From the NCBI RefSeq assembly GCF_011045215.1, contig NZ_CP049201.1: a stretch of DNA of 64,000 nucleotides. One strand, given 5' to 3'. Under the pieces are notes generated by a model. That model did no database searches. It was given only the letters and a program-made list of their open reading frames with translations, and was not told where the DNA came from. Position 1 is the stretch's first letter; the number at the start of each line of letters is the position of its first letter. Position numbers and translations under genes: made by a program. Source of the DNA: Escherichia coli. Lineage in GTDB: Bacteria > Pseudomonadota > Gammaproteobacteria > Enterobacterales > Enterobacteriaceae. This document shows positions 10,884 to 59,900 of the stretch, one piece after another.

Positions 10884-10935
10884 TAAGTGGATTATGCTGC
10901 CATCAGGCAGTGTGATTGCCGGCAGGGATTTCGTT

Positions 10936-11127
10936 TTATTCTGTTTCTTCCCGGGGTTCGGGTTTGAATTTTCCCAGGAAGTTGTACATCGGTCGCATGC
11001 AGGGATGCGGATAGCCGTCCCGCATAAACACCACCCGGGTTTCCTCAACACTGGTCACGGTGACAAGCGCACCATGATCGTCTCTGTATCGCTGATTGAT
11101 TTTCGGTAATGGAATATCTTCTGACAT
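10936..11127 (-). CDS. Hypothetical small protein (63 aa)
   Basis: ORF only, convergent with the upstream genes; no recognisable motif. Confidence 0.3.
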   Translation of the reverse strand: MSEDIPLPKINQRYRDDHGALVTVTSVEETRVVFMRDGYPHPCMRPMYNFLGKFKPEPREETE

Positions 11128-11480
11128 AGATTTCAGAACGGTAACAGTTAACTAAAATTTCACGTGGTATCGCTGAATCAGGAGACGGCGTTTCCTGATT
11201 CACACTGTCAATTTACTGTTTTACGAAACATTTTCTCCTCCCTTCTTCCTGTGTGTTTTATTGCGCACTTCCTTTATGCCATTTCCATTTCCCGAAACTC
11301 GCTTAAGTGTTGCTAAAACATTGCTCATCGCAATTTTCAATGACCGAAATCAAATATCACTATTTTTTATGCTAACCAACTGTATTAAAAGCATTCGGCG
11401 GAATAATTTTCTGCGGTTTTCTATTAATCATGGTTATAAGTTTTGCATTATGCTGGTTTTACGACACGGGACAGAATAAA

Positions 11481-11552
11481 GATCTGTATATTTGCTATAT
11501 ATCGATCGATACATCTGTCATATTGAGATTTTACAGATCTTTACTCTATAAT
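11481..11552 (+). promoter_or_regulatory. Putative T6SS operon promoter region with clustered GATC sites
   Basis: AT-rich 480-bp gap before tssB; TTGAGA (11523..11528) and TATAAT (11547..11552) with 18-bp spacing; GATC at 11481, 11504 and 11536 within 60 bp. Confidence 0.35.
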
Positions 11553-11632
11553 GAGCAAAATTAAATCAGTGCACAAGGGGAGGCATCTGCGGTGATGGAC
11601 CCCCTGAGATGCAGGCTTCACAGGAGAGAGTC

Positions 11633-12130
11633 ATGAGCAGTTCGTTTCAGAATGAAATCCCGAAAGCAAGGGTAAATCTGAAATTAGACCTACATACAGG
11701 TGGTGGGCAGAAGAAAGTGGAGCTTCCGCTCAAACTGCTGGTTGCCGGTGATTTCAGTAACGGACAGGAAGAGCGTCCACTGTCAGAGCGTGTAAAAACG
11801 GATATTAATAAAAACAATTTTAATGATGTTCTGGCAGATATCTCCCCGTCTGTGCGTCTGAATGTGGAGAACACGCTTGCCGGTGATGGCTCTGAAGAGA
11901 GCATCAGCCTGACGTTCCGCAATATGAACGATTTCACGCCAGAGCAGGTCGCCCGACAGATTCCCCGTCTTAAAGCCATGCTGGCCATGCGCAGCCTTCT
12001 GCGGGACCTGAAAGCCAATCTGCTGGATAACGTGACTTTCCGTAAAGAGCTGGAAAAAATTCTGCGTGACCCGGCACTGAGCCAGACGCTGCGTGATGAA
12101 TTGCGTGCACTGGTGCCGGAAAAGGCGTGA
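11633..12130 (+). CDS. tssB: T6SS contractile sheath small subunit TssB (VipA)
   Basis: 165 aa from the ATG preceded by AGGAG (the ORF-track start at 11609 lacks an RBS); first gene of the sheath pair, directly followed by tssC. Confidence 0.88.
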   Translation: MSSSFQNEIPKARVNLKLDLHTGGGQKKVELPLKLLVAGDFSNGQEERPLSERVKTDINKNNFNDVLADISPSVRLNVENTLAGDGSEESISLTFRNMNDFTPEQVARQIPRLKAMLAMRSLLRDLKANLLDNVTFRKELEKILRDPALSQTLRDELRALVPEKA

Positions 12131-13711: not shown

Positions 13712-15049
13712 ATGAAGATTTATCGTCCACTGTGGGAAGACGGGGCTTTTCTGATGCCCCAGCAGTTTCAGCAGCAGGCTGCCTGGGATGTTCATCTGGC
13801 AGACAGCGTTGCCAGAATGGGGCTGGCGCATCCATGGGGCGTGGTGGCTGCAGAGTTTGATGACTCTCTGTTACCTCTTTCACGGTTGAATGCCACCCGT
13901 CTGATTGTTCGTTTCCCGGACGGAACGCTTATTGATACGGAACGCGCGGATAATCTGCCTCCGGTCTGTGATTTATCGACGGTTTCTGATCGTTCCCTGG
14001 TGGATATTGTGCTGGCACTACCGTTACTGAATGCTAACGGTGGCAACCTTGATAATGGCAGTGAGAGCGAGCGTCCGCGTCGCTGGAAATCAGAAAGGGT
14101 GAATGTGCAGGAGCTGGCCGGGCATGAGCAAAGCGAAGTGGCGGTATTGCGGCATAACCTGACTCTGCGCATGGCTCATCAGGAAAATGCTGCCTGGCTG
14201 ACCTGTCCCGTTACCCGTCTTGTTCGTGATGCACAGGGACAGTGGTGCAGGGACCCGCGTTTTATTCCCCCTCTGCTGACGCTGTCTGCCAGTCCTTCGC
14301 TGATGACTGAACTTGCGGAGTTGCTTCATCACCTGCAGGCGCGTCGCCAGCGACTGATGTCCATGCGTCGGGAGAACAATGCCCGTCTTGCGGATTTTGC
14401 AGTGGCGGACGTGTCGTTGTTCTGGTTGCTGAATGCCCTGAACAGTGCGGAGCCTGTTCTGAAAGAGTTGCTTGACATGCCTTACCGCCACCCGGAACTG
14501 TTGTACAGGGAGCTTGCCCGACTGGCAGGCTCCCTGCTCACATTCTCGCTTGAGCATAATGTGGATGCGGTTCCGGCATACCATCATGAAACACCTGAAA
14601 ATGTTTTCCCACCTTTGCTTTCTTTGCTGAACCAGCTGCTGGAGGCAAGCCTGCCTTCCCGTGTGGTCTTCATTGAACTGAAACAAAATGGTGTGATGTG
14701 GGAGGGGGCATTACATGATGCGCGTCTGCGCGAAGGGGCTGATTTCTGGCTTTCAGTGCGCTCTTCCATGCCCGGGCATGAACTGCAGACGAAGTTTCCG
14801 CAGCTATGCAAAGCCGGAAGCCCCGATGATGTGTCTGAGGTGGTGAATGTGGCGCTGAGCGGGGTCATTATCCGTCCGGTTACGCATGTACCGGCGGCCA
14901 TTCCACTCCGGCTGGAAAACCAGTATTTCGCGCTGGATTTAAGTACGGATGCGGCCCGGGCGATGCTGGACGCGGGGCGTTGTACTTTCTACACCCCGGC
15001 ATCGCTGGGGGATGTGAAACTGGAACTTTTTGCGGTGCTGCGGACATGA
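13712..15049 (+). CDS. tssK: T6SS baseplate protein TssK
   Basis: 445 aa; N-terminal MKIYRPLWEDGAFLMPQQFQQQ typical of TssK; position between tssC and tssL. Confidence 0.85.
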   Translation: MKIYRPLWEDGAFLMPQQFQQQAAWDVHLADSVARMGLAHPWGVVAAEFDDSLLPLSRLNATRLIVRFPDGTLIDTERADNLPPVCDLSTVSDRSLVDIVLALPLLNANGGNLDNGSESERPRRWKSERVNVQELAGHEQSEVAVLRHNLTLRMAHQENAAWLTCPVTRLVRDAQGQWCRDPRFIPPLLTLSASPSLMTELAELLHHLQARRQRLMSMRRENNARLADFAVADVSLFWLLNALNSAEPVLKELLDMPYRHPELLYRELARLAGSLLTFSLEHNVDAVPAYHHETPENVFPPLLSLLNQLLEASLPSRVVFIELKQNGVMWEGALHDARLREGADFWLSVRSSMPGHELQTKFPQLCKAGSPDDVSEVVNVALSGVIIRPVTHVPAAIPLRLENQYFALDLSTDAARAMLDAGRCTFYTPASLGDVKLELFAVLRT

Positions 15050-15699
15050 ATAAACCTGTTATCTCCCGGGCTGAACAGATTTTTTATCCCGGCTGGCTGA
15101 TGGTCAGCCAGCTGCGCAGCGGGCAACCGGTTGAGGATGGTAAGGCCCTGTATCGCCGTGCCTGTCAGCTGGTGAAACAGGCGCGTGAAGAGCTGGCCGA
15201 AGCAGGATTCAGTCAGGAAAACAGTGACACCATGTTGTATGCCTTCTGTGCCCTGCTGGACGAGAGTGTGCTGAACCGCGAAAAAACAGATGATGGCTGG
15301 CACACCTGGCAGCAGGACCCGCTGCAGGCTCATTTTTTTGGTACGCTCAATGCCGGTGAAGAGCTCTGGGAGCGTATTCGTGAGCAACTGAAATTACCAG
15401 CGCCGGATGTGGCGGTACTGACATGCCTCTGCCGTACGCTTCAGCTCGGTTTTACCGGTCAGTACCGGTCGCAGGATGATGAGCGTCGCGAAGATGTAAT
15501 ACGCGCACTGACAGCGCGTGTTCCTGCATTTACTTTCGCACAGGATGCGCCGGTGGTGGTGCGTGCACCGGGTTACCGTGCTGGCAGAACGATGTACTGG
15601 TTGTCATGGGTGGCGGGTATTGTGACGCTGGCTGGTCTCTGGTGTGTGCTTTCTTCTGTGCTTGCAGACCAGGTGGCACGGCTTACCGGACAGGGATAA
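15046..15699 (+). CDS. tssL: T6SS membrane-complex protein TssL (DotU-like)
   Basis: ATG overlaps the tssK stop (ATGA); about 217 aa with a single C-terminal TM helix, as in DotU/TssL. Confidence 0.8.
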   Translation: MNKPVISRAEQIFYPGWLMVSQLRSGQPVEDGKALYRRACQLVKQAREELAEAGFSQENSDTMLYAFCALLDESVLNREKTDDGWHTWQQDPLQAHFFGTLNAGEELWERIREQLKLPAPDVAVLTCLCRTLQLGFTGQYRSQDDERREDVIRALTARVPAFTFAQDAPVVVRAPGYRAGRTMYWLSWVAGIVTLAGLWCVLSSVLADQVARLTGQG

Positions 15700-15701
15700 C
15701 C

Positions 15702-17432
15702 ATGCACGTACGTTCCCGTCTCTGGCTGACAATACTGAGTCTGTTCCTGACACTGTGGCTGATTTCGGGATTCCTGCCGCTGTCTGTAGTAAACCAGATA
15801 ATACTGACCCTGGTTTCAGTTGTGGCGGCGGGGCTTGTGCTGTGGTACCAGTGGCGTTGTCTGTCTTCCCGTCGTGATATCCCGGAGAAGGCCGGCGATG
15901 ACGGTCTGCCGCCTGAGTATTTTCAGGGACATGTGCTGCTTGTTGCCGGAAACTCAGATGCGTGGTTCGAATCCGGTCAGGCATACCGGGAAACAGCATC
16001 GGGATGGTATCTTCGTGTGGATACGCCGGAGCAGATGAGAATACTGGCAGAACGGTTGTCGTATAACCGTCCGGCCCTGTGTGGCCAGGTCGTGGTCATG
16101 CTGGGACTTTTACCGGAGCAGCATACCTCAGATGAAGCTTTTCTGCCGTGGTTGCGGAACTGGCAGCGTGCAGTCATGCAGTGCCGGCAGTGGCTGAATA
16201 CCACGCCACCGGTGCTGGTGACATTGATGGTTTCAGAGCCGTCACCACAAAACACATCCTTAAATAAGCACTCTGCACACTGGTTTACACTGACACCGGA
16301 CCTGCCGGGAATGCATATACGCCTGACAGAAGCCGGAGCCATTCCGGCAGAGGAATGGCTGCTGGCGTGTGATGCAGCGTCCAGGCTCCGGTGCGTCAGT
16401 GAACTGTTATGGCTGAATGCCATGTTGTCCTGGTACAACAGGGTTACTGATGCCCTGACAGATATTTGCCGGCAGGAGCACTTTTATTTCCGGCCGGTTG
16501 CCGTTGGATTCTGTCTGACGTCGGTTGCGGCCCACCCCGGTAATCTCTGGCAACAACAACTGACGTCCCTCACTGCACTGCCACCGTCTGCCGGCGTGTC
16601 ATCACAGGCACTGCCGTTGCCGGATATTCTGCTGTCCGGTATCCCCCGTCATCGTGGACTCAGTCACTGGCACAGACTTTGTCGCCAGACAGGGGCGATT
16701 GTCGGTGTTTTTCTTCTGCTGGCTATACTGGCGTCTTTTATGAATAACCAGCGACTGGTTCGCAGTGTGGGGGAGCACCTGACGGCCTGGCACCGGATGA
16801 GCGGATATTCATCTGAATCGAAAACAACAGCACTGCAACGTCTTCAGGCTGACAACCAGTTACTGAACGACTGGCAGCAACGTGGTGTGCCACAGCGTTA
16901 CGGACTGGGATTGTATCAGGGAATGTGGCTGATATCGCCGGTTGAGCGAGCGATTAGTGAGCGGGTTGCACCACTGCCTCCCCGTCCGGTGATACAGAAA
17001 GTTACTCAGACGCCGAAAACGGTTCGCCTTAACAGCCTGGCGCTGTTTGATGCCGGTAAATGGACGCTGAAGCCGGGCGCCACAAAATGGCTGGTGAATG
17101 CCCTGGTGGATATTAAGGCAAAAGCAGGCTGGTTGATTGTGGTCAGTGGCCACACGGACAATACCGGTGACCCGCAGCGCAACCAGGCTCTGTCCCTGAA
17201 GCGTGCAGAGGCCGTTCGCGACTGGATGCGGGATACCGGCGATATTCCTCAAAGTTGTTTTGCCGTACAGGGATACGGTGAAAGCCGCCCTGTGGCCCCG
17301 AATGACACGGCGGAAGGCCGTGCGCGTAACCGCCGTGTTGAAATCAGTCTGGTACCGCAGGCCGATGCCTGTCGTCTGCCGGACGCTTCCCCTGCGCCGG
17401 AAGAGGGCGCATCAGAAAACATAACGGAGTAA
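15702..17432 (+). CDS. tagL: TagL-like inner-membrane protein with C-terminal OmpA-family peptidoglycan-binding domain
   Basis: N-terminal TM helices, C-terminal segment VVSGHTDNTGDPQRNQALSLKRAEAVRDWM...NRRVEI is an OmpA/MotB-type PG-binding signature; start at the ATG giving MHVRSRLWL. Confidence 0.75.
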   Translation: MHVRSRLWLTILSLFLTLWLISGFLPLSVVNQIILTLVSVVAAGLVLWYQWRCLSSRRDIPEKAGDDGLPPEYFQGHVLLVAGNSDAWFESGQAYRETASGWYLRVDTPEQMRILAERLSYNRPALCGQVVVMLGLLPEQHTSDEAFLPWLRNWQRAVMQCRQWLNTTPPVLVTLMVSEPSPQNTSLNKHSAHWFTLTPDLPGMHIRLTEAGAIPAEEWLLACDAASRLRCVSELLWLNAMLSWYNRVTDALTDICRQEHFYFRPVAVGFCLTSVAAHPGNLWQQQLTSLTALPPSAGVSSQALPLPDILLSGIPRHRGLSHWHRLCRQTGAIVGVFLLLAILASFMNNQRLVRSVGEHLTAWHRMSGYSSESKTTALQRLQADNQLLNDWQQRGVPQRYGLGLYQGMWLISPVERAISERVAPLPPRPVIQKVTQTPKTVRLNSLALFDAGKWTLKPGATKWLVNALVDIKAKAGWLIVVSGHTDNTGDPQRNQALSLKRAEAVRDWMRDTGDIPQSCFAVQGYGESRPVAPNDTAEGRARNRRVEISLVPQADACRLPDASPAPEEGASENITE

Positions 17433-17437
17433 TTTTT

Positions 17438-17929
17438 ATGGCAATTCCAGTTTATCTGTGGCTGAAAGATGATGGCGGTGCAGATATCAAAGGGTCCGTG
17501 GATGTTCAGGACCGTGAGGGCAGCATTGAGGTGGTGGCTCAGGAGCACTGCCTCTACATCCCGACGGATAACAACACCGGTAAGCTGACCGGTACCCGTA
17601 TTCACACACCGTTCCTGTTTACCAAGGAAATTGATTCTTCCAGCCCGTACCTTTACAAGGCCGTGACCACCGGGCAGACCCTGAAGTCTGCTGAATTTAA
17701 GTGGTACAAAATCAATGACGCCGGTCAGGAGGTGGAGTACTTCAATACGAAGCTTGAGAACGTGAAGGTGGTGAAGGTTAATCCGGTCATGCACGACATC
17801 AAGAATCCCACCTACGAGAAGCATAACCACCTTGAACAGGTGGAACTGCGCTACGAGAAAATCACCTGGACCTACAAGGACGGCAACATCATTCATTCCG
17901 ACGCATGGAGTGAACGTACCACCGCGTAA
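17438..17929 (+). CDS. hcp: T6SS tube protein Hcp (TssD)
   Basis: 163 aa; MAIPVYLWLKDDGGADIKGSVDV start is the classic Hcp N-terminus; GGAG RBS. Confidence 0.9.
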   Translation: MAIPVYLWLKDDGGADIKGSVDVQDREGSIEVVAQEHCLYIPTDNNTGKLTGTRIHTPFLFTKEIDSSSPYLYKAVTTGQTLKSAEFKWYKINDAGQEVEYFNTKLENVKVVKVNPVMHDIKNPTYEKHNHLEQVELRYEKITWTYKDGNIIHSDAWSERTTA

Positions 17930-17936
17930 TTCTCCC

Positions 17937-17975
17937 GGACGGGCAGGGCATCCTGTCCGTCATTTTTATTTTTTC
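17937..17975 (+). terminator. Intrinsic terminator-like hairpin plus T-run after hcp
   Basis: GGACGGGCAGG-GCAT-CCTGTCCGTC stem followed by ATTTTTATTTTTT. Confidence 0.55.
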
Positions 17976-18097
17976 TTCAGCATCTGTTGGCGGGTGCTGA
18001 AGAAAAAATTCTCAATCCTGAACACAGACCTGATGCGCCTGGGTTACGGCGAAGGGCGGTAGCGTGCCTGACGGTCTCCTGACAGTGAGTGAATAAC

Positions 18098-20785
18098 ATG
18101 GAAAATTCGGCAGCTCTGTTACGTCGTCTTAATCATTACTGTGCCCGTGCACTGGAAGGCGCAGCCTCCCTTTGCCAGACCCGGGCCCATGCAGAAATCA
18201 CCCCGGAGCACTGGTTACTGAAACTGCTGGAGCAGGGGGAAGGAGACCTTACCGTGCTGGGCCGGCGTTATGGCTGGGATATGGACGCGATATGGCAGTC
18301 GCTGCTCGGCTGGCTGGATAACCAGCCCCGTAGCGTACGCAGTCGCCCGCAGCTTGCGCCGTCCCTGAATGCCCTGCTGAAACAGGCCTGGATGGTGGCC
18401 TCATTACAGGGGGAAGAACATATCCGCAGCGTGCATCTGCTGGGTGCCCTGACGGAACATCCGCACCTGGTTCGCTGTGACGGGCTGTGGCCCCTGCTGA
18501 CACTGAGTCAGAGTCAGTTGCAGCGTCTGTCCCCGCTGCTGGATGCGCAGTCTGATGAGTGTCCGGAGAGATTACAGGATGCAGAGCCTGTGCTGCCTCA
18601 GGGAGACAATGTGACCTTTATCGGGCGCCCCGTCGGTGCGGATACGGCGGGTATACCGTCAGGTGACCTGCCGCCTGTGTTACAGAGTGCGCTGGATAAA
18701 TTCACCCGGGACATCACGGCCAGTGCGAGAGAGGGTAAAATTGACCCGGTATCGGGGCGCGATACGGAAATCCGCCAGATGGTGGATATTCTCTCCCGCC
18801 GCCGCAAGAATAACCCGATTCTGGTGGGGGACCCCGGTGTGGGGAAAACGGCTCTGGTGGAAGGGCTCGCCCTGCGTATTGTGGAAGGTAACGTACCGGA
18901 ATCACTCAGACCCGTCACCCTGCGCACCCTTGACCTCGGCCTGCTGCAGGCCGGTGCCGGCGTGAAGGGGGAATTTGAACAGCGCCTGAAAAACGTGATT
19001 GATGCCGTGCAGCAGTCACCGGCTCCTGTTCTGTTGTTTATAGATGAAGCCCATACCCTTATCGGGGCCGGTAATCAGGCTGGCGGCGCGGATGCGGCGA
19101 ACCTGCTGAAGCCTGCGCTGGCGCGGGGTGAACTGCGCACCATTGCCGCCACCACCTGGTCTGAGTACAAACAATACCTGGAACGTGACGCGGCCCTGGA
19201 GCGGCGTTTTCAGATGGTCAGAGTGGACGAGCCGGATGATGAGACGGCCTGTCTGATGCTACGCTCCCTGAAATCCCGTTATGCGGAACATCATAACGTG
19301 CATATCACCGATGAGGCGGTACGTGCTGCCGTCACACTGTCGCGCCGTTATCTGACAGAACGTCAGTTACCGGACAAGGCCGTTGACCTGCTTGATACCG
19401 CTGCTGCCCGTGTGCGTATGAGCCTCGACACGGTGCCGGAACAGCTGACCCGTATCCGTTCACAGCTCGCCTCCCTCGGTATGGAAAAACAGGCACTGCT
19501 GGAAGATATTGCCGTTGGTCATCAGAATCACGGCGAACGCCTGTCTGCCATTGAGCAGGAAGAGAATGTGCTGATGACAGCACGTGATGACCTGGAGCAG
19601 CAGTACGCCCGGGAGTGCGAACTCACCGGTGAGTTACTTGAAAGCCGCAGCGATATTTCCCGCCAGAGTGAGACACATCACCTGCAGCAGGCACTGCACG
19701 ACATTCAGCAGAATCAGCCCCTGCTCAGTGTGGATGTTGATGTACGCACCGTGGCCGGTGTGGTCGCGGACTGGACCGGGGTGCCGTTATCCTCACTGAT
19801 GAAGGACGAACAGACGGAACTGCTGCATCTGGAAAAGGATATCGGCAGACGGGTGGTCGGACAGGACGTGGCACTGGAATCCATTGCACAGCGTCTGCGT
19901 GCGGCGAAAACGGGTCTGACATCCGGTAACGGCCCCCAGGGGGTGTTCCTGCTGGTTGGCCCCAGTGGTGTGGGAAAAACTGAAACGGCACTGGCACTGG
20001 CAGACGCGATGTACGGCGGCGAAAAATCACTGATTACCATCAATCTGTCGGAATATCAGGAGCCCCATACGGTTTCCCAGCTTAAGGGCTCACCGCCCGG
20101 GTACGTGGGATACGGTCAGGGGGGGATTCTGACGGAGGCTGTGCGTAAACGCCCTTACAGCGTGGTGCTGCTGGATGAAGTGGAAAAGGCCCACCGGGAT
20201 GTGCTGAATCTGTTTTATCAGGTATTTGACCGGGGCTTTATGCGCGACGGCGAGGGGCGTGAAATTGACTTCCGTAATACGGTCATACTGATGACCTCCA
20301 ACCTGGGCAGTGACCTTCTGATGCAGCAACTGAGCGAAAAGCCGGAGACAACGGAATCGGAGCTGCATGAGCTTATCCGTCCACTGCTGCGCGACCACTT
20401 CCAGCCTGCCCTGCTGGCTCGCTTTCAGACCGTGATTTACCGTCCGCTGACACAGTCTGCCATGCGCATCATTGTGGAGATGAAGCTTGCACAGGTCTGT
20501 GAACGCCTGCACTGCCATTATGGACTGAGTACATCGGTTGATGAACGTGTGTACGATGCCCTGACATCAGCCTGCCTGCTGCCGGATACGGGCGCCCGGA
20601 ATGTGGAGAGTCTGCTGAACCAGCAACTGCTGCCGGTACTGAGCCGGCAGTTGCTCAGCTATCTTGCTGCCAGACAGCATCCGACGTACCTGTCTCTGAC
20701 GTGGAATGATGAGGATGGTATTGTGATAGCGTTTGATGGAATCAATAGCGATTATCCGCAGGAAAGCATATATGGACAGTGCTAA
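18098..20785 (+). CDS. clpV: T6SS AAA+ ATPase ClpV (TssH)
   Basis: Two AAA+ modules with Walker A GDPGVGKT and GPSGVGKT, Walker B LLFIDEAH and VVLLDEVEKA, ClpB-like N-domain. Confidence 0.93.
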   Translation: MENSAALLRRLNHYCARALEGAASLCQTRAHAEITPEHWLLKLLEQGEGDLTVLGRRYGWDMDAIWQSLLGWLDNQPRSVRSRPQLAPSLNALLKQAWMVASLQGEEHIRSVHLLGALTEHPHLVRCDGLWPLLTLSQSQLQRLSPLLDAQSDECPERLQDAEPVLPQGDNVTFIGRPVGADTAGIPSGDLPPVLQSALDKFTRDITASAREGKIDPVSGRDTEIRQMVDILSRRRKNNPILVGDPGVGKTALVEGLALRIVEGNVPESLRPVTLRTLDLGLLQAGAGVKGEFEQRLKNVIDAVQQSPAPVLLFIDEAHTLIGAGNQAGGADAANLLKPALARGELRTIAATTWSEYKQYLERDAALERRFQMVRVDEPDDETACLMLRSLKSRYAEHHNVHITDEAVRAAVTLSRRYLTERQLPDKAVDLLDTAAARVRMSLDTVPEQLTRIRSQLASLGMEKQALLEDIAVGHQNHGERLSAIEQEENVLMTARDDLEQQYARECELTGELLESRSDISRQSETHHLQQALHDIQQNQPLLSVDVDVRTVAGVVADWTGVPLSSLMKDEQTELLHLEKDIGRRVVGQDVALESIAQRLRAAKTGLTSGNGPQGVFLLVGPSGVGKTETALALADAMYGGEKSLITINLSEYQEPHTVSQLKGSPPGYVGYGQGGILTEAVRKRPYSVVLLDEVEKAHRDVLNLFYQVFDRGFMRDGEGREIDFRNTVILMTSNLGSDLLMQQLSEKPETTESELHELIRPLLRDHFQPALLARFQTVIYRPLTQSAMRIIVEMKLAQVCERLHCHYGLSTSVDERVYDALTSACLLPDTGARNVESLLNQQLLPVLSRQLLSYLAARQHPTYLSLTWNDEDGIVIAFDGINSDYPQESIYGQC

Positions 20786-21413
20786 AGAAATTGCCCGGGA
20801 TATGCTGGAGTCCGTAAATATTAATGGGGATGGGTTTCTGGGGGCCGTCGGGAAGGGGCTCATATCTTTGCCAGTCAGTCTCGGTTATATGGGATATGAT
20901 TTTACAGATACCGGGCATAGGCGGGAAAACCAGAATGACAAATTCAGAATGGCCAGACTGGTAGAAAAAGGCATTTTCAGCCGTGATATTATTGGGAAAA
21001 TTATCAGTATTTGTCTTGAAGACTTTGTATCCCGGATCAATATGGAAAAAATAGGCTCCATTGTGAAGAACGTTTCAGGAGATCTGGCAGGTAGAATGGC
21101 ATTTGCTGAATTGACCGGGGTTAAACTGGGAGAGGCTCTGGTATCCAGAGGGCTGGCTGCTTTTTTTGCAGGGAGTTTTGCCGGGTTGTTATTATCTGTT
21201 GGCGCAGAGACATCGCGTGCGATTTACACATCCCGTTTTCTGAAAGACAGAAATCCGGTGTTGCATGATAAGCTGAAAGCTCAGGGGGATTTGGATCTTT
21301 TGTACTTCCTTGTTGAAGATATTGTGCGCCCGTTTGAACGAGCCTGTATTGTCGCAGACCGAAATTCGGCTGAGTTTGACCGGATATGCGAATATTTTTT
21401 CGGTGGTTTATGA
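20774..21413 (+). CDS. Hypothetical protein with a Gly/Ala-rich hydrophobic segment (putative membrane-active effector)
   Basis: 213 aa from MDSAKEIARD; segment GLAAFFAGSFAGLLLSVGAET; located between clpV and vgrG; function not recognised. Confidence 0.45.
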
Positions 21414-35789: not shown

Positions 35790-36844
35790 TTACCCGTTAC
35801 CGGAAACAGCTTCCGTATATTAATTTTTACCGCTTCTGTCAGTTACTGGAACAAAGCCAGCCAGACCAGCCTCCCATTGGCAGTGGCTGGCAGGCCCGTC
35901 AGGAAGCGGTTCGCTTTTGTCCATACCCGGGAATGGGGTTTCCTGCGAGTGAAATAAAAGACGCTGTAATTCCTGAAGAATCCCATCTGCCACCCACTGT
36001 ACATGTGACGTTTATGGGACTTTACGGGGTCACGTCTCCGTTGCCGGCACACTATATCAGTGATATTGCACAGCAGCGGGAAGGCCATGAGGCGGCAGCG
36101 GATTTTCTCGATATATTCAGTCATCGTCTGATCACCCAGTATTACCGTATCTGGCGCAAATATTCGTACCCGGCCACCTTTGAGGCGGGAGGGCAGGATA
36201 AAACGTCTCAGTATCTGCTCGGTCTGGCTAGGCTGGGGATCCCCGGATGTGCACAGAATATTGCCACGCCGGTATCGCGTTTTCTGGCGTTATTGCCCCT
36301 GATGTTGTTACCCGGAAGAACAGCTGAAGGGCTGACATCACTGGTAACGCTACTAGCTCCCGGAACACAGGCCCGTGTCTGGCATCATGACCGACGACGG
36401 ATCCCGCTGAAAACACCGCTGACCATGCGTGTTCATCATCCGGTCAGTCTGAAGAGTCGCCCGGTGATGGGCGATCATGCCACGGATGTGAACGGACAGG
36501 TGTTATTACAGCTTTCAACACAGACGGGCAGCGAGGTACAGGGCTGGTTACCGGGCGGGCAGCTGTATTCTGATTTGCTGGCGTTGTTGCACGTTTATCT
36601 GGGAAGCCGTCTGGATGTACGTCTGCAACTTTGTGTTGAGCGTTCACTGTTACCAGATGCCCGGCTCAGTTGCCGGCCGGCAGCCGGTAGTCCGCAACTG
36701 GGGCGCACGGCAGTAATGAGAACACAGGCAAAGATAACGAATTCAGCGGCACGCGTCATGACCATCAGTCTGGGGCGTTATCAGCGGGTTCAGGAACATT
36801 ATCAACGTAAGGAGACTCAGGAAAATGGCGATTATCGCTGGTAA
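35744..36844 (+). CDS. tssG: T6SS baseplate protein TssG
   Basis: 366 aa immediately after tssF with overlap; start codon uncertain. Confidence 0.78.
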   Translation: MHPVERKSQSAPARLITRYRKQLPYINFYRFCQLLEQSQPDQPPIGSGWQARQEAVRFCPYPGMGFPASEIKDAVIPEESHLPPTVHVTFMGLYGVTSPLPAHYISDIAQQREGHEAAADFLDIFSHRLITQYYRIWRKYSYPATFEAGGQDKTSQYLLGLARLGIPGCAQNIATPVSRFLALLPLMLLPGRTAEGLTSLVTLLAPGTQARVWHHDRRRIPLKTPLTMRVHHPVSLKSRPVMGDHATDVNGQVLLQLSTQTGSEVQGWLPGGQLYSDLLALLHVYLGSRLDVRLQLCVERSLLPDARLSCRPAAGSPQLGRTAVMRTQAKITNSAARVMTISLGRYQRVQEHYQRKETQENGDYRW

Positions 36845-37361
36845 GGCTGGTTACGGTCTGATTATTGCGTTGTTTTCCCTGTCGTTATCAGGGTGCGGTC
36901 TGACGCAAAGAGTGGCAGACGGTACGGTATCTGCCACGAAATCCCTGTTTTACCGACAGATAAAAACACTTCACCTGGATATTCGTGCAAGGGAGGCCAT
37001 TAACACCAGTGCTGCCGGTATTCCCCTGTCGGTTGTGGTGCGGATTTATCAGCTTAAAGACAACCGGAATTTTGACAGTGCGGATTATCAGGCGCTTTTT
37101 ACGGGGGACAATGAAATTCTGGCAGGCGATATCATTGCACAGAAAGATGTATGGCTGCAGCCAGGAGGTTCAGTAGCCGTGGATATGCCCCTGGATGATG
37201 CGGCGAAATTTACCGGTGTGGCAGCAATGTTTCTGGAGCCTGACCGGAAGAAAAATACCTGGCGGGTGGTGCTGAGCCGGGATGAGCTTGAGCCGGACAC
37301 GCCCCGTCTTATTGAAGTATCCGGTAACACCCTGACGCTGTTACCGGTGAAGGATAAATAG
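36825..37361 (+). CDS. tssJ: T6SS outer-membrane lipoprotein TssJ
   Basis: 178 aa with lipobox LSLSGCGL; position before tssE. Confidence 0.72.
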   Translation: MAIIAGKAGYGLIIALFSLSLSGCGLTQRVADGTVSATKSLFYRQIKTLHLDIRAREAINTSAAGIPLSVVVRIYQLKDNRNFDSADYQALFTGDNEILAGDIIAQKDVWLQPGGSVAVDMPLDDAAKFTGVAAMFLEPDRKKNTWRVVLSRDELEPDTPRLIEVSGNTLTLLPVKDK

Positions 37362-37363
37362 CG

Positions 37364-37795
37364 ATGCCGCGTCCTTCCCTTTATGAAATTCTCTATGGCA
37401 ATTTCGCTGGCGGGCTGGAGTTAAATCAGGTCGGTGAGGAAGAGCAGGTTATTCTTTCGGTGCTCGATAACATGCAGCGTATTCTGAATACCCGGGCCGG
37501 AAGCCTTAAACATCTGCCGGATTATGGTCTGCCGGATATAACAACCATTCTGCAGGGAATGCCGGGGACGGCGCATCAACTGATGCGCGTGCTTTCAGAT
37601 GTTCTGCTGAAGTATGAGCCACGTATTAAGCGTGTCGACGTGACGATGCAGGAACAGACTCAGCCAGGTGAGTTGCATTATGTCATTGATGCAGAACTTA
37701 AAGATGCAGGGCTGGTTCGCTACGGAACAACATTTATGCCGGAGGGCAGGGTGTTGTTGCGCCATCTGAAACAGCAGCGGTACGTTCAGACGTGA
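37364..37795 (+). CDS. tssE: T6SS baseplate protein TssE (gp25-like)
   Basis: 143 aa; SLYEILYGNF...ILSVLDNMQRILNTRAGS... matches the gp25/TssE family pattern. Confidence 0.8.
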   Translation: MPRPSLYEILYGNFAGGLELNQVGEEEQVILSVLDNMQRILNTRAGSLKHLPDYGLPDITTILQGMPGTAHQLMRVLSDVLLKYEPRIKRVDVTMQEQTQPGELHYVIDAELKDAGLVRYGTTFMPEGRVLLRHLKQQRYVQT

Positions 37796-37951
37796 GCCGG
37801 AGCAGGGAGGGCAAAACAGAAATTAATAAACAGTGATGGATATATGTCAGGTGTGAATGTGACATTATACTGGCTTATGACAACACTGGCTGAATGTTTC
37901 ATCATCCTGATAACTCTGGCATATCAACAATAACAATGTATGAGTTTTTAA

Positions 37952-38353
37952 ATGAAGAAAATTATCTGTTTTCTGTTCGTGGGGCTTTTATTTTCGGTTC
38001 AGGCAGATGCTGCGCGGGGAAGAAAACCCTGCTCGGGTGCTAAAGGTGGTATTTCACACTGCACGTCAGACGGACGTTTTGTCTGCAATGACGGAAGTCT
38101 GAGTCAGTCGAAGCGCTTTTGTTCCGGTTATGGCGTGGCACCCGACAAACGTCAGGTGGAATCACCGGTCACCACGAAGCCGGTTCAGAAGAAAAAATCA
38201 GCGGCTGTCCGGAAGGTGTCACAACCGTCGGTGGCCGGGAAAAATGAGGTTGTACCGGTCACTGAACCCCGTAAACCCACCTGTGCGCCGCTTTATATGG
38301 CCAGCAAACCTGGATTTACACATCTGCCCATTTGTTCCGGTAATCAGTATTAA
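37952..38353 (+). CDS. Secreted Cys-containing small protein (signal peptide)
   Basis: 133 aa; signal peptide MKKIICFLFVGLLFSVQADA; mature part has Cys-containing Gly-rich N-terminal segment and Lys-rich middle. Confidence 0.5.
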   Translation: MKKIICFLFVGLLFSVQADAARGRKPCSGAKGGISHCTSDGRFVCNDGSLSQSKRFCSGYGVAPDKRQVESPVTTKPVQKKKSAAVRKVSQPSVAGKNEVVPVTEPRKPTCAPLYMASKPGFTHLPICSGNQY

Positions 38354-38508
38354 TCTGACACTGAAATAGCAGAGAAATCTGTGCTCAGCCTGCAGTTAAT
38401 TCTGTACTGGTGGGCATCATAAAGCCGGACAGCCTTCCGGGTATAAATATTTCCGGAGGGCGTTAATCAAAGATATTCAGTTACTGAGAAGGAAAATAAA
38501 GGAAAGTC

Positions 38509-39752
38509 ATGGCAGGAAGAAAAAAAGATGATAATGCAGCGGGATTTGTTCTGATTTTAGTTTGCGTTATTCTCTGGGGGATTTATGTGGCGGTCAGGGC
38601 GCTGATAAATCTTAATGAGCGCTTTATTGATGCAGTATCGAATCCGGCAGGTATTATTGGTTTGTTTTTGGGTTTGCTTACTGTATTTGCAATTTTACTT
38701 CGTTTTTTTATTTACCGGAGACTCAGAAAGAAAACAGCAGCCTTTGAGCAGGCCGTTTCAGAGCTGGTTCAGAGAGAACGGGGTTTTAATGAAACTGTCA
38801 ATGCCGCGATAGCCCGGGGAATACGACAGGAAAAGGAGCAACTAGCCAGACGTCGTGAGGATTTCATACCGCCAGACAGAAGGCCAGCCGTGCAATGCAA
38901 CGGATTGTTGATTCCGCTTGGAAATTTAAGGCGAAGACTCTGCTGGCTGGTGTAACGATTAATAACTGGCAAAGCAAATATGACCAGCTTCGTAAGGAAA
39001 GAGAGGCTTACGCTGCTGTCAGTGAGAAAATTGCCTTTCTTAACCTGGAAGATAATTCTGACTGGGAGAGTGTCAGGCAACAGTTTCTGGACAAAGTGGC
39101 GTTGCTGGAAAAAGCGCAGGAAGAAAAGGAATATCAGGCAGAGCTTAAGCGTCAGATGCGTGAAGAAAAAGAGCGTCAGGATGAACTTGACCGGCGCCAG
39201 CGGGAAGCGGAAGAGGAAGAGCGGCGTCTTGCCGAGCAGCAGAAACTGATTGAAGAGGCGCTGCGTGCCGCAGAAGGGGCTCACAGGGAGGAGCTGGAGA
39301 AACAACGCCTGGCGCTGGAACAGAAAATTCAGGAAGCGCATGCGCAGTACGAACGTGCTAAATCCATGGCTCAGCTTACGAAACAGGGGCATGTTTATAT
39401 CATTTCGAATATTGGTTCGTTTGGTGAGGATGTCTTTAAAATTGGCATGACCCGACGGCTGGAACCCATGGACAGGGTCAAAGAGTTAAGTGGTGCTTCT
39501 GTTCCGTTTGATTTTGATGTTCACGCCATGATTTCCTGTGATGATGCGCCTGCGCTGGAAAAAACACTTCATGACAGTCTGGAAAAATACCGCATTAACA
39601 GGATTAACCTGCGTAAAGAATTTTTCCGCGTGAAGCTTGAGAAAATCATTAATGAAGTGGAGCGTCACCACGGGCAGGTGGAATATGTGGCTGACCCGGC
39701 GGCGCTGCAGTACCTGCAGAGTCTGGAGTGCGCGGAAAATGAAGCTGCCTGA
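38509..39752 (+). pseudogene. Membrane-anchored coiled-coil protein with C-terminal T5orf172/GIY-YIG-like domain (DUF4041-type), frameshifted as given
   Basis: ORF 38509..38955 (two TM helices then helical region) and ORF 38895..39752 (coiled coil then GHVYIISNIGSFGEDVFKIGMTRRLEPMDRVKEL...FDFDVHAMI) are adjacent, overlap, and lie in different frames; both frames read as natural protein up to the 38860..38900 interval. Confidence 0.6.
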
Positions 39753-39944
39753 CAATCAGTGTTCTGATTTTATTCCGGCCGGATATAACAGAAGGGATAT
39801 CTGCACATATCCTGCAGCATGGTTCACGGTATTCCGGTCATGTTAATGATTCTGTTTTTTATTTCTGAATAAAACGACACCCACGATATAACGTCGTGGG
39901 TGTCGGTGGTGATTATTTTTTTGTTCACAGATTAAGGTGCGTTT

Positions 39945-41732
<1,788 letters not shown>

Positions 41733-41797
41733 TACCGGATTATTTCTTTATTCCGGGCTTTCACCATACTGTTATTATCAGGTTTATTTAATTCGCC

Positions 41798-42103
41798 ATG
41801 AACCCGTTATTTAACGATATTCAGATGCGTCTTTTTTATCTGAACCACTCTCCGTACTCCTGGCACTGGAATGTCAGATTCAGACCTCAGGAAGCCGTAT
41901 ATATTGGCAACGATACCTGTCATATCACCATTACCTGTAATCAGTCAGGTTTTCATTTAACCCGGGACGGACAACGGCTGTTCACTGAGCGTTATATCAG
42001 AAACCTTAATGAGCTGTTACCGGTTCTGAAACGGCGGTGGGATGTGACACCGGCAATCATCCGTGCAGTGGAATACCTTTCCCGGGTCCCGGTATCACAC
42101 TGA
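41798..42103 (+). CDS. Hypothetical protein (101 aa)
   Basis: ORF only; no recognisable motif. Confidence 0.3.
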   Translation: MNPLFNDIQMRLFYLNHSPYSWHWNVRFRPQEAVYIGNDTCHITITCNQSGFHLTRDGQRLFTERYIRNLNELLPVLKRRWDVTPAIIRAVEYLSRVPVSH

Positions 42104-42157
42104 CATTCTTTCCGTAACTGTTAATCATGATTTAATACAGCAACACTGAATCTGCCG

Positions 42158-43522
42158 ATGACTTCTGAAGTGAAACTGAAAACCGGTGGTGACCCCCGGT
42201 CATTACCGGATTATACTGCCCTACGTGATGAAATCAGCAAACTGACCCACCCGGCACGCCCGGATGTGGACTGGCGTTATGTGGAAACACTCTGCCTGCG
42301 TCTGTATGAACACAATGGCGTGGAATTACAGACGGCATCCTGGTACACCATCGCCCGGATGCATACAGCAGGGTTAAGTGGCCTGAATGAAGGGCTGGCT
42401 CTGATTGTGGCGCTGACCCGGCATCACTGGTCAGTGATGTGGCCGCTGAATACCCACGCCCGGCTGGAAATTATTACCGGTCTGTTCAACCGTCTGCAAA
42501 AAACGCTCCGGGCCATGCCACCGGATAACCGTGACAACCTGCCTCAGCTGTATCAGACCGAAACATTCCTGAAGGTACTGAGTGACATATTTATCCGACA
42601 TGAGCTGAAGCAAAACAGCCGGCTGGTGTTACTGGAAAACATGGTGAAGGGATATATCATTCGTCTGGAGAATCAGCCTTTACAGGGGGATGATTCGTCC
42701 CCGGTAACGCTTCCTGCTCAGGCACTCCGGTCTGATGCACCGGATGTGCAGGAACATCAGACCCTGCCGCACTCCCGTCTGGTGTATATTGTTTCTGAAA
42801 CAAAAGCAGAACCCTCCCCCTCCCTTCAAAAGTCTTCACCCACGTTTCTGAAACCGTTTGTGGCTGGTGTCTGTGCGGCATTGCTGGCTGTCAGCATGGC
42901 CATTCCGGGATGGCAGTTTCTGACACAGCCATCACCGGCGGAGCAGCAACTCAGGGCGCTGCTGACCCCCCCACCGGATGTGCTTTCAGCAGACCAGATG
43001 ACACAGCTCAGCAGAATACCCTCACTGTTAAATCATGTGTCAGAGTGGATACCCCTTTCCGGTCAGCAGATAACGCGACTGACAGAACTACCGCCGGCAT
43101 ACAACCTGCAACGCAGTGCGCAGCTGCTGCAGCAACTGATGGTGCTTTTTCCCGATAATCCCCGTGTCCAGGAAATGGTGGATAACTGGCAGAAGAGTGT
43201 AATGAGCCGTGCGCTCCCGGAAGAGGCGATGACGGGCTGGAACGAAGGTATGACCCGCTTACAGCAGCTGGCTGAGCGCCTGAACCGTCTGGATGAACAG
43301 CGGGGAAAATACATAACGGTCAGTGAACTGAAAACGGAGGTGTTTGGCATCATGCAGGCTTTTAACCGGCATATCCCGGCAGAAGAGCAGTTACGTCGCT
43401 ATGGCGAAGCCCGCAACCAGAATGGCAGTGAACAGCAGCAAAAACAGGCTGAAATGGCGCTGAATCAGTTGATTAACCGTTATCAGATGGAACACACAGG
43501 CAATCAGGAGGGGCAGCCATAA
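42158..43522 (+). CDS. ImpA_N-domain protein (TssA-related, TagA/VasL-like) with internal TM helix
   Basis: 454 aa; N-terminal GGDPRSLPDYTALRDEISKL...PDVDWRYVETLCLRLYEHNGVELQTASWYTIARMHTAGLSGLNEGL matches the ImpA-related N-terminal domain; hydrophobic segment FVAGVCAALLAVSMAIPGW mid-protein. Confidence 0.65.
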   Translation: MTSEVKLKTGGDPRSLPDYTALRDEISKLTHPARPDVDWRYVETLCLRLYEHNGVELQTASWYTIARMHTAGLSGLNEGLALIVALTRHHWSVMWPLNTHARLEIITGLFNRLQKTLRAMPPDNRDNLPQLYQTETFLKVLSDIFIRHELKQNSRLVLLENMVKGYIIRLENQPLQGDDSSPVTLPAQALRSDAPDVQEHQTLPHSRLVYIVSETKAEPSPSLQKSSPTFLKPFVAGVCAALLAVSMAIPGWQFLTQPSPAEQQLRALLTPPPDVLSADQMTQLSRIPSLLNHVSEWIPLSGQQITRLTELPPAYNLQRSAQLLQQLMVLFPDNPRVQEMVDNWQKSVMSRALPEEAMTGWNEGMTRLQQLAERLNRLDEQRGKYITVSELKTEVFGIMQAFNRHIPAEEQLRRYGEARNQNGSEQQQKQAEMALNQLINRYQMEHTGNQEGQP

Positions 43523-43846
43523 TGGCTGATTAGATAGGGTAATGTAAAATAATGCAACAATAACGTTTACACAATAAGGTGTAAGCTGAAATTAACTCGT
43601 TCGTGGAATAACCTAATGAGTAAGGTTCTGCTACTTTGAGTTGGATAAGTTATATAGAACAGCAGTCCTGATAGTCAGAAAGAGTTTTTTCTGGGGTGTA
43701 TTTTTATAGGGTGTTAATCTGGTATTTAATTAAAAGACGGAGTTATTTATACTGACATATCAAATAAATAATTTTTAACGACTTTTCTATTTGGCTGATT
43801 GTTTTGCGTTCTTTTTATAAGGTGTTTTATTTTTAAAGGTTTTTTG

Positions 43847-45662
43847 ATGAGATTACATAGTCTTAAAATAAAAGGATTTAAACGTATCCAAACTGCAAGA
43901 GATAATATTTGGTGATACCACGTTTCTCATTGGTGCTAATAATGCCGGTAAAAGTTCTGTTCTGAAGGCCGTTGAATGGCTGCTTTCAGATAAAAAGAAG
44001 ATGGATATTGACTTTTTTTATTGTGAATCTGATGAATCACGTGAAAATAAAATAGCAACTGAGTCAATTGTACTCGAGGCTGAATTCAGAAATGTACCGG
44101 AAGAGGCATTGCAATGGAGAGGTTTTAGGGGGAGGATATTTGAATATAATGCTGGAAATAGTGGGGAAACGGGAAAGTCTCTGATTTACAGGAAAACATA
44201 TGAACCGGGGAATGATGTTGTTATTGAATTGAAATCTTTTTCAAGAAAATTGAATACACGATTTGAAACCGCAGTCAGAGCATCTGACTTGGTAGAAGCT
44301 GGTGCTGATGCCGAAATCATCACTGAGTATTTTCCAGATCAAGCTAAAAGATTTAATGCAGCTGACAAAGAAAAATTAAAACTCATTGATGAATTATGGG
44401 ATATTTCTGATGATGAAGAAGTTTGGGATAAAAACCCGGGGGGAATTGCAGGTGTTGTGTTATCCCGATTACCTGCTTTTCTATTAATACCAGCAGAATC
44501 AGCTTCTCATGAAATTGACACAAAAGCGGGAGCTTTGCAGAAAACGCTGAATGAACTATTCAAAGATGTTCGTGGCAATTCAGAAAATTATAGAAAGGCC
44601 CAGGAGTCTCTGAATGCGCTTGCGAAGGAATTAGATCCTGCAGATGAAACGTCAGAATTTGGTGTGATGATGGGAGAACTTAACAGTGTATTAAGCGGAG
44701 TTTTTCCAGAGTCAAAGATATATGCTACGGCTGATTTATCTGATCCTGATAATGTTCTCCTACCTTCATTTTCGGTTGAAATGTCGAGTAACATTAAAAC
44801 ATGTGTATCGAATCAAGGAACCGGAATGATTCGAGCAGCTGTATTTGGATTGTTGAGATTTCGGCAGCAATGGCTGAGAAAAAAAGGTAAGGATGATGCT
44901 GCTACCAGAAGTCTTATTATTGGATTTGAAGAACCAGAAATTTATTTACACCCTAGTGCAGCAAACCAGATGAGAGATTTGATTTATGAATTATCAGATG
45001 GACAGTCACAAATAATAGCGACAACACATTCACCTTATTTGATTGATTTGTCGAGAAAACCCCGACAGGTACTTAACCGATTCCATTATGATAATTCACA
45101 TACGACAGTCTACCCGCTCTCAGTGACAGAGAAATTTCTGGCCTTGCAGGATAATGATAAAGATCAGATAAAAATGCTGATTAAGCTGGATGATCATGTA
45201 TCAAGGATCTTTTTTACCCGAAAAGTTGTTGTTGTCGAGGGAGATACAGAGGAAGTCATTATCAAAGAAGCTATCCGCAGAATGCCAAAAGCAATGCGAA
45301 ATAAGTTGCTTGCATCAACAGAGCTGGTTAAAGCACGTGGCAAGGCTGCGATTATCGGCCTGGTGAAGTATCTTAGCGCGCTGGATGTTGATTTTTTTGT
45401 TATCCATGATCGTGATGGCGGAACTCCCGGTGCGGAGATCTTTAATGCGCCGATTGCTGCTGCTGTTGGGGATGCCAGCAAAGTTATCATGCTGGAAGAG
45501 TGTATTGAGGATCTGCTGGGGTACCCAGCTCCAAGTGGTGAAAAACCGTTTAAGGCGTATCAGGAAGCACAGCGCTGGGGAGATAACTGGAATGACGTGC
45601 CTGAACCATTAAGGAGAATACTGACTAGAGCTTTTTCCCCATTTATCGATTTGGCTGAATGA
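43847..45662 (+). pseudogene. OLD-family ATP-dependent endonuclease (ABC-type ATPase plus Toprim), N-terminal frameshift as given
   Basis: ATG at 43847 encodes MRLHSLKIKGFKRIQTARDNI then TGA at 43913; shifting frame at 43908..43913 gives FGDTTFLIGANNAGKSSVLKAVEWLL (Walker A) continuous with the 44001..45662 ORF; downstream TTHSPYLIDLS and Toprim-like VVVVEGDTEE...FFVIHDRDGG. Confidence 0.75.
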
Positions 45663-48555: not shown

Positions 48556-48816
48556 AATTTCCGCTGGTATAACAAACAGGGTTATGGATATTCTCGTTTA
48601 TGTGGAACATTCAGTTTGTATCGGAACTGGTAAGAACCTGACAGTTACATTCCCAATGTTTTATGGGGCTTCGGGGATATATATAATAGTTTATTGATAC
48701 ATGTTCTGTAGTTATACTGCGTATTCCGCTCTATTCGATCACGGATTTGCATCGAAGTCCGATCAGCGATTCGCATACTTTCGATCAACCGGGAACTTAA
48801 CTTTTTCTACCGCTTT

Positions 48817-49572: not shown

Positions 49573-49588
49573 TCGGTTGTTCCTTCTG

Positions 49589-51235: not shown

Positions 51236-51327
51236 TCAATGATCGGAAGCGTGCCAAATCGTGATCGATTGTGATGCCAAACTGTGATCGGAGATGGATG
51301 CCAAATCATGATCGATTCGAATGCCAA

Positions 51328-57072: not shown

Positions 57073-57135
57073 TACGCACATGACAAGCCCCGGCAGCGGG
57101 GCTTTTGTATTTAAAACAGGATATAAAAGCTAACA

Positions 57136-59894: not shown

Positions 59895-59900
59895 GTACAT

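Follow-up and report, generated by a model that had tools for sequence, protein, structure and literature searches.

The stretch analysed here, called the window throughout, is a 64,000-nucleotide piece of an Escherichia coli genome (NCBI RefSeq assembly GCF_011045215.1, contig NZ_CP049201.1), and the element in question is the AT-rich gap that precedes tssB, the first gene of an operon for a type VI secretion system (T6SS). We found that this gap corresponds to the sci1 promoter (Psci1) of enteroaggregative E. coli (EAEC), a promoter under the joint control of the Fur repressor and of Dam methylation at GATC sites, and that it carries a rare allele which lacks the GATC within the Fur box at the −10 (G1) and has a GATC further upstream (G4) that is missing from the EAEC reference. 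The features at the locus are the following:

10936..11127, minus strand: DUF4222 gene, divergent from tssB (Pfam PF13973, E 5e-23)
11128..11632: intergenic gap of 505 bp with 38.2% GC, orthologue of the EAEC sci1 promoter fragment
11481..11484: G4, the GATC of AGATCT (11480-85), which reads AGTCCT in the EAEC reference; corresponds to the putative ancestral position P1
11483..11501: equivalent of the distal Fur box F2 (fur2), diverged, identical at 14 of 19 positions to EAEC CCTGATTATTTGCATTATA
11504..11507: G3, the GATC in ATCGATCGAT, equal to published GATC-III, 32 bp from G2
11523..11528, plus strand: −35 hexamer TTGAGA, from the promoter scan
11536..11539: G2, AGATCT in the spacer, 7 nt past the −35 and 7 nt before the −10
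11547..11552, plus strand: −10 hexamer TATAAT, from the promoter scan
11547..11565: equivalent of the proximal Fur box F1 (fur1), TATAATGAGCAAAATTAAA, overlapping the −10; 18 of 19 positions identical to the bound EAEC box TATAATGATCAAAATTAAA
11553..11556: GAGC at the position of G1 (GATC-I)
11557..11632, plus strand: predicted 5′ untranslated region
11592..11636, plus strand: candidate leader open reading frame (ORF)
11633..12130, plus strand: tssB (sciH), first gene of a sci1-type T6SS operon (TIGR03358, E 2e-49)

A first-pass annotation of the window, made from the letters, had described an AT-rich gap of about 500 bp before tssB, GATC sites at 11481, 11504 and 11536 and a TTGAGA-18-TATAAT promoter at 11523-11552, and each of these readings was confirmed: the gap measures 505 bp, the sites read GATC at 11481-84, 11504-07 and 11536-39, and TTGAGA (11523-28) is separated by an 18-nt spacer from TATAAT (11547-52). 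In 200-nt windows the GC content of the gap is 33-39%, compared with about 50-55% in the flanks. The promoter is the sole sigma-70-like site found by the promoter scan in 10900-11700 and agrees with the consensus at 11 of 12 positions, and its −35 is also the BProm-predicted −35 of Psci1. Both hexamers lie at the published Psci1 position and are identical to those of EAEC, with a column conservation of 0.98 (−35) and 0.99 (−10), and they form the predicted core promoter of tssB, with an inferred transcription start. The name tssB is also the one given to the gene at the matching loci in the annotation of strain C5, of O104:H4 and of other genomes, and the identity of TssB, TssC and TssK is backed by NCBIfam equivalogs. 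The gene order downstream is tssB-tssC-tssK-tssL-tagL-hcp-clpV, and these T6SS genes appear intact.

The sci1 promoter of EAEC 17-2 was characterised by Brunet et al. in 2011 on a 596-bp fragment (PMC3145626). The published primer Prom sci1-5 matches the window exactly at 11068-11092, within the DUF4222 gene, which also holds, at 11076-79, a "distal" GATC; the GATC-dis of the 596-bp Psci1 fragment is drawn in Figure S1 of that paper (PMC3145626). Since all four promoter and box oligonucleotide sequences of EAEC 17-2 occur exactly in the O104:H4 locus L003, we let L003 represent the fragment of that study. A three-way alignment (A1) was colinear over about 600 columns, in which the part from ATCGATCGAT through the ATG was almost invariant and the upstream 350 bp were about 75-80% identical. 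Because of the primer match and the colinear alignment, the region is taken as the Psci1 orthologue and, by sequence, 11128-11632 is the main promoter region of the sci1-type (E. coli T6SS-1) cluster. The 503-bp region matched 163 of 5426 complete E. coli genomes, each time between the DUF4222 gene and tssB; the best match was C5, a cow isolate (97.3%), and every other match was at most 86% identical. An exact 22-mer of the conserved leader had 0 matches among GTDB species representatives, and the sci1 promoter is therefore confined to a subset of E. coli strains and does not characterise any other species. As a side observation, the sci1 cluster of E. coli O104:H4 2009EL-2050 (L126, locus 2005-3768) is truncated after a partial tssC but retains an intact Psci1 and an intact tssB, in full agreement with the EAEC 17-2 oligonucleotides.

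The identity of the individual GATC sites was established against Figure S1 of the 2011 study, which places GATC-III at position 451 (PvuI/BspDI, i.e. ATCGATCG), GATC-II at position 483 (BglII) and GATC-I at position 500 (BclI, TGATCA) (PMC3145626). The restriction-site identities and the 32-bp spacing between G3 and G2 agree between the window and the figure, and in both promoters G2 and G3 stand in the same context and spacing at the same locus, with the same −35, 18-nt spacer and −10. The proximal box differs at one position of 19 and the leader at 3 positions. The differences lie elsewhere: 17 bp past G2, the window reads TATAATGAGCAAAATTAAATC (TGAGCA, 11552-57) where the fur1 box oligonucleotide of EAEC reads TATAATGATCAAAATTAAATC, a T-to-G change at 11555 that removes the Dam site in the Fur box; the window has G4 where EAEC reads AGTCCT; and the two distal boxes disagree at 5 of 19 positions. 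The three sites of the window are accordingly G4, G3 and G2, and the published three are G3, G2 and G1. The suggestion of the first-pass annotation that clustered GATC sites mark the Dam/Fur switch of the EAEC sci1 promoter had therefore picked the right system, Psci1 itself, but the wrong set of sites: 11481 has no counterpart in the EAEC reference, and the defining feature of the 2011 model, a −10 Fur box with an overlapping GATC, is absent. What survives of the switch is G2 in the spacer and G3 beside the distal box. We also dropped the idea that 11481 was newly gained in the lineage of the window, because the alignments point to an ancestral site that was lost in EAEC.

These assignments bear on a reading of the locus in which the switch is complete and of the EAEC type, the three GATC sites being the switch sites and Fur and Dam excluding each other at the −10. 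The orthologous locus, the identical −35, −10, G2 and G3 and the nearly unchanged proximal box all agree with it. However, in EAEC a single GATC overlaps the −10 Fur box, and it reads GAGC here; 0 of the 3 GATC in the window overlap the proximal box, and the 11481 site is absent from the strain in which the switch was defined. The sequence thus contradicts this reading, and we regard a complete switch as very improbable.

The frequency of each allele was surveyed in 44 sci1-type promoters with 27 distinct alleles, comprising the window, 17 E. coli genomes picked across identity strata and 26 metagenome contigs, whose retrieval pattern accepted both G and T at the position that decides G1; the incomplete L119 was left out. 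With presence (1) and absence (0) of GATC written in the order G4, G3, G2, G1, the patterns were:

1111: 31 of 44 promoters, most lineages
0111: 9 of 44, the EAEC / O104:H4 type
1110: 2 of 44, the window and C5
1001: 1 of 44, a plasmid copy with a pseudogenised tssB
0101: 1 of 44, strain SW070919

G1 was GATC in all 26 metagenome contigs. A 39-nt query over the proximal box was matched perfectly only in C5 among the 5426 genomes, and 146 genomes were one base off; about 429 genomes of O157:H7 type showed a gapped 36-nt match to the 39-mer (~92% identity) near 95 kb, which may be due to chance or be a relic and was taken as unrelated to the T6SS and left out of the counts (H128-H153). Among the promoters surveyed, the architecture with four GATC is the common E. 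coli state, and it is probably also the ancestral one; the published EAEC strain is a three-site minority allele, and the window is a rare, derived allele without G1. Because the reference strain lacks the G4 that most alleles carry, the mutational dissection in EAEC was done on a minority architecture. In the plasmid copy (L090, plasmid pEC012-3 of E. coli C012), the promoter stands before a frameshifted tssB, G3 and G2 are lost and the −10 reads TAAGAT, a decay that is consistent with a non-functional tssB.

Whether such a cluster needs any explanation depends on how often it arises by chance in AT-rich intergenic DNA. Under a first-order Markov model of the 503-bp region, three GATC within 59 bp were reached in 3.3% of simulations, so the number of sites alone is a weak and mildly unusual signal, and 12 such triplets occur across the whole window, mostly in insertion sequence (IS) repeats; both figures (local P=0.033; 12 triplets) agree with chance. 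Against this stands the distribution of GATC in the island. The whole window has 142 GATC compared with about 253 in shuffles, and the T6SS operon is about two-fold depleted (49 observed vs 101 expected, with none in one 7.0-kb stretch), whereas the 160 bp preceding tssB hold 3 GATC vs 0.7 expected. Further evidence comes from conservation: across diverged E. coli lineages G3 is present in 43, G2 in 42 and G4 in 34 of the 44 promoters, in DNA that is otherwise ~20% diverged, and among alleles the GATC columns are conserved at 0.975-0.98 vs 0.89 for other promoter columns. In addition, GATC offsets are fixed across genera, as described below, and mutational data on the sites exist for EAEC (PMC13262931). 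Because the sites are conserved, a chance origin is excluded, and we leave it practically no probability.

Both boxes, fur1 and fur2, are Fur targets in EAEC, where the repressor competes with RNA polymerase, and purified Fur shifted a fur2 fragment (PMC3145626). There, both in vitro and in vivo, Fur shields G1 from Dam; G2 and G3 have no such protection and were methylated under all conditions tested in 2011; methylation of G1 lowers the affinity of Fur for fur1, and the thymine beside the methylated adenine contacts Fur according to the authors (PMC3145626). Work of 2026 by Taillefer et al., which introduced A-to-G mutations into the chromosome (the G1 mutant reading GGTC), found the G3 and G123 mutants homogeneously OFF, while the G1 and G2 mutants stayed heterogeneous with shifted ratios and impaired killing, the G1 mutant having fewer ON cells (PMC13262931). 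The F2 mutant was more ON, i.e. derepressed, even in rich medium, and in one of the figure titles of the study the control of heterogeneity is attributed to F2 and G3 (PMC13262931).

In the window, the proximal box matches the Fur consensus at 12 of 19 positions, compared with 13 of 19 in EAEC. The F2-equivalent matches at 7 of 19 (hand count in this register), compared with 11-12 of 19 in EAEC, and so falls below the reporting threshold of 11/19 in our 19-bp consensus scan. It lies between G4, with which it shares 2 nt, and G3, which follows after a gap of 2 nt, and holds a vestigial −35-like TTGCTA (11492-97). Since matches of at least 12/19 occur 138 times in the window, the consensus has no discriminating power in this AT-rich DNA, and the candidate Fur boxes have no independent statistical support from sequence.

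Taken together with the EAEC results, we consider it likely that this Psci1 orthologue is a Fur-repressed sigma-70 promoter of duplicated ancestry, in which Dam input enters via distal G4 and G3 only and the G1 arm of the switch is dead. By analogy with EAEC, Fur-Fe on the proximal box over the −10 would block RNA polymerase when cells are iron-replete, Dam would methylate G4, G3 and G2, and methylation of the distal module (G3, plus G4 across the F2-equivalent) would favour the ON state. Methylation could not shut Fur out of the −10 in this allele, as it does in the published switch, because the proximal box offers no adenine to methylate, and any epigenetic memory would therefore have to be supplied by G4 and G3 of the distal module. 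Whether the allele ends up more or less active is uncertain, since two indications point in opposite directions: the engineered G1 mutant had fewer ON cells, whereas the T that is changed here is the one reported to contact Fur, so that the T-to-G change may weaken the binding of Fur at the proximal box.

The loss of G1 can also be read as the end of Dam control altogether, with a weakened proximal Fur box leaving a plain iron-responsive or largely derepressed sigma-70 promoter, in which the remaining GATC would be inherited passengers, always methylated and without effect. That EAEC G2 and G3 were methylated in all conditions of 2011 and were not protected by Fur, and that the changed T was described as a Fur contact (PMC3145626), would fit such an uncoupling, as would an allele that is rare and recent and common only to the window and C5. 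In contrast, the chromosomal G3 mutant of 2026 was homogeneously OFF (PMC13262931), which means that G3 is not a passenger in EAEC, and G3, G2 and G4 are conserved above background, with positions fixed across genera. We judge uncoupling unlikely.

A further reading keeps the methylation input and assigns the distal GATC cluster to a protein other than Fur that methylation would modulate, namely H-NS (nucleating on the AT-rich DNA), SeqA (on hemimethylated DNA) or a regulator recognising AAGATCTGTA. The poor match of the F2-equivalent to a Fur box is one reason to think of it. Another is TCGATATATA on the minus strand at 11496-11505, which matches the high-affinity H-NS site of proV, TCGATATATT, at 9 of 10 positions (PMC2094087) and overlaps the G and A of G3. 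G4 and G2 moreover share an inverted 16-nt motif, AGA(A/G)TAAAGATCTGTA, identical at 15 of 16 positions, and the AAAGATCTGTA motif marks P1 in other genera, where a conserved Fur box was not detectable. Yet purified Fur shifted EAEC fur2 and mutation of F2 derepresses (PMC3145626, PMC13262931); an H-NS match of this quality is expected by chance about once per seven such regions (an estimate), and the alternative binders are putative. A non-Fur reader of the distal sites is, in our view, rather improbable.

Several points weigh against the distal, G4/G3-dependent switch that we favour. The −35 and −10 of Psci1 are BProm predictions in the published work (PMC3145626). A 12/19 match to the Fur consensus was reached in 66% of shuffles of the region, and the F2-equivalent has only 7/19. 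The T-to-G change may itself impair Fur binding, and its effect could go in either direction. The two proposed duplicate modules, described below, are not significantly alike (P=0.13). The host dam and fur genes lie outside the window, all of which is island DNA. Finally, the samples are partial, with 17 of ~163 E. coli genomes examined and a metagenome pattern that needed exact flanks.

The comparison with other genera was made on relatives of TssB with 71-83% identity, giving 80 loci from GTDB species representatives. In 36 of these, from at least 10 genera, an ungapped TTGNNN-18-TAnnAT promoter lies 62-66 nt before the ATG, and all 60 GATC found between −60 and +30 in these 36 promoters fall at four offsets from the start of the −10:

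Offset −42: 9 promoters
Offset −35: 21 promoters
Offset −22: 19 promoters, inside a TTGATC −35
Offset −11: 11 promoters

At least one GATC at the four offsets is present in 28 of the 36. The geometry, including a GATC placed as G2 of the window, is found in Enterobacter, Citrobacter, Salmonella enterica subsp. arizonae, Leclercia and Lelliottia, and also in Cedecea, Kosakonia, Mixta and Serratia (loci L004-L083 for all of these). G2 of the window lies at −11, with a spacer of 7 nt, GATC and 7 nt as in the cross-genus promoters, and so has the geometry of the putative ancestral position P3; the window core has CATC at the −35 offset and GAGA at the −22 offset. Upstream, G4 sits at the P1 offset and G3 at the P3 offset less 1 nt. 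The 14-nt run GATCTGTATATTTG at G4 is identical to the tssB promoters of Salmonella arizonae and Serratia, and 11478-11494 (AAAGATCTGTATATTTG) equals the −35-offset motif of Salmonella arizonae, Serratia and Leclercia. When aligned with the family module, the segment from G4 to G3 scored 18 (P<0.0005) and the segment from CATC (11512) to G2 scored 12 (P=0.001), the two modules of the window being 31-32 bp apart. Because each of them aligns with the cross-genus module, a duplication was inferred.

There are also clear differences between the two kinds of promoter. The cross-genus promoters have one module 62-66 nt from the ATG, often carry a GATC in the −35 (TTGATC), have none after the −10, and share a conserved GAAAATTCTTAAGAA palindrome ~70 nt upstream of the −10; sci1 has two modules at ~86 nt and lacks the palindrome. 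In the window itself 86 nt separate the start of the −10 from the ATG and the GAAAATTCTTAAGAA palindrome is absent, and for this reason sci1 is regarded as a derived relative and not a typical member. A conserved position for a Fur box was looked for in the cross-genus tssB promoters and none was found. The palindrome may be a regulator site; it lies upstream of the GATC cluster at loci that include L009, L025, L027, L030, L034, L040, L044, L056, L058, L060, L067, L070 and L074.

In the proposed history, G4, G3 and G2 would go back to GATC sites that held fixed positions in an older tssB promoter common to many Enterobacterales. A tandem duplication of the ancestral promoter module (~31-32 bp) would have given rise to the sci1 arrangement, in which the distal copy kept both GATC and lost its −10, and the proximal copy kept its −35, spacer GATC and −10; the proximal copy would later have gained TATAATGATC, that is, G1 within the Fur box, as a sci1-specific feature. 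The broader proposal, that fixed Dam sites are an ancestral cross-genus feature of tssB promoters, which sci1 duplicated and supplemented with a Fur box and G1, so that the window now runs on G4/G3 alone, is put forward tentatively, as a possibility that we place somewhat short of probable. If true, ON/OFF heterogeneity of the T6SS that depends on Dam would predate the coupling to Fur and would be widespread, in genera and species such as Enterobacter, Citrobacter, Salmonella arizonae and Leclercia. Our literature search found no paper on conservation of GATC in tssB promoters across genera, nor experiments on those promoters.

Phase variation by competition between a regulator and Dam at GATC sites is known for agn43 (OxyR), pap (Lrp), Salmonella gtr, opvAB (OxyR) and std (HdfR). 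The sci1 promoter resembles this type in its clustered promoter GATC and in a regulator occupancy and methylation that are mutually exclusive and give heritable ON/OFF states. It differs in that the reported regulator is Fur and the trigger is iron, not a stochastic event, and the window allele differs further in having no GATC inside a recognisable regulator box of the core promoter. The Fur/Dam switch of Psci1 is the best-understood epigenetic control of a T6SS. It sets an ON/OFF ratio that balances killing against retaliation (PMC13262931). The locus described here is a rare natural variant of this known system, and what is added is the four-site ancestry, the allele without G1 and the positions of Dam sites across genera. 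With T6SS genes that look intact, the allele of the window and C5 offers a natural test of how far the switch depends on G1 as opposed to G3. Likewise, the fixed GATC in genera without a recognisable Fur box make the conservation of T6SS heterogeneity, a question raised in PMC13262931, testable.

Between the core promoter and tssB, the predicted 5′ untranslated region, a leader of roughly 80 nt, has a mean column conservation of 0.98 vs 0.89 for other promoter columns. The Shine-Dalgarno sequence of tssB, AGGAGAGAG, lies at 11622-30 ahead of the ATG at 11633. A structured leader RNA was considered and dropped, since the leader matched no Rfam family above threshold and folding of the single sequence gave a z-score of 0.47, i.e. 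no unusual fold. The candidate leader ORF, (V)MDPLRCRLHRRES*, stands behind a strong AAGGGGAGG, and its TGA overlaps the ATG of tssB (ATGA). It is open in 44 of 44 sci1-type sequences, including a lineage in which an ATG is replaced and the GTG kept; because the whole leader is so conserved, coding by this ORF is not separable from other constraint. Elsewhere in the promoter region, a 28-nt inverted repeat (11473-11500 vs 11520-11547, 79% complementary) is centred near G3, includes the 16-nt motif that G4 and G2 share, and is present but weaker in other lineages; it could reflect a symmetric binding protein or the history of duplication.

Two stretches of the window are free of GATC, 13988-21035 (7.0 kb) and 36473-44337 (7.9 kb), where 25 and 28 would be expected from dinucleotide content (P ~1e-11), and TCGA is also very rare in them, with 3 and 6 occurrences. 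The first covers the 3′ end of tssK, tssL, tagL, hcp and clpV, and it is equally free of GATC in the diverged sci1 lineage of STEC409 (L127), from +2355 to +9260 relative to tssB; STEC409 served as the comparison cluster here and O104:H4 was unsuited, its sci1 being truncated after tssC. A published Fur/Dam promoter inside sci1, P4532 (Brunet, Bernard and Cascales 2020), is cited in PMC13262931. P4532 was looked for in the window and could not be placed; the first GATC past the 7-kb stretch (21035, 21081 and 21294) lie in the gene after clpV, roughly where P4532 may be expected.

Outside the promoter region, the window consists of mosaic island DNA, made up of IS elements, the T6SS and type I restriction-modification genes, and is closest to C5; no tRNA or core genes were found in it. 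At 1925-2035, 48720-48800 and 51225-51330 there are 3-4 direct repeats of ~23 bp (TTGGCAT...cGATCA), each with a GATC, which explain several of the GATC triplets of the window; these arrays are the ends of an IS21-family element with IstA (49589-51235) and IstB (48817-49815), both on the minus strand. A perfect inverted repeat of 1,943 bp (400-2342 vs 50915-52857) brackets 48.6 kb that include the whole T6SS, each arm holding a transposase gene of the Tn5/IS4 type (471 aa) and an IS21 end; it could enable the island to invert or to be mobilised, or it could be an assembly artefact. Downstream of the T6SS, from about 53600 to 63200, the annotation of matching E. coli genomes places type I restriction-modification and DEAD/DEAH helicase genes, and the type I system provides the island with a second source of adenine methylation, distinct from Dam.

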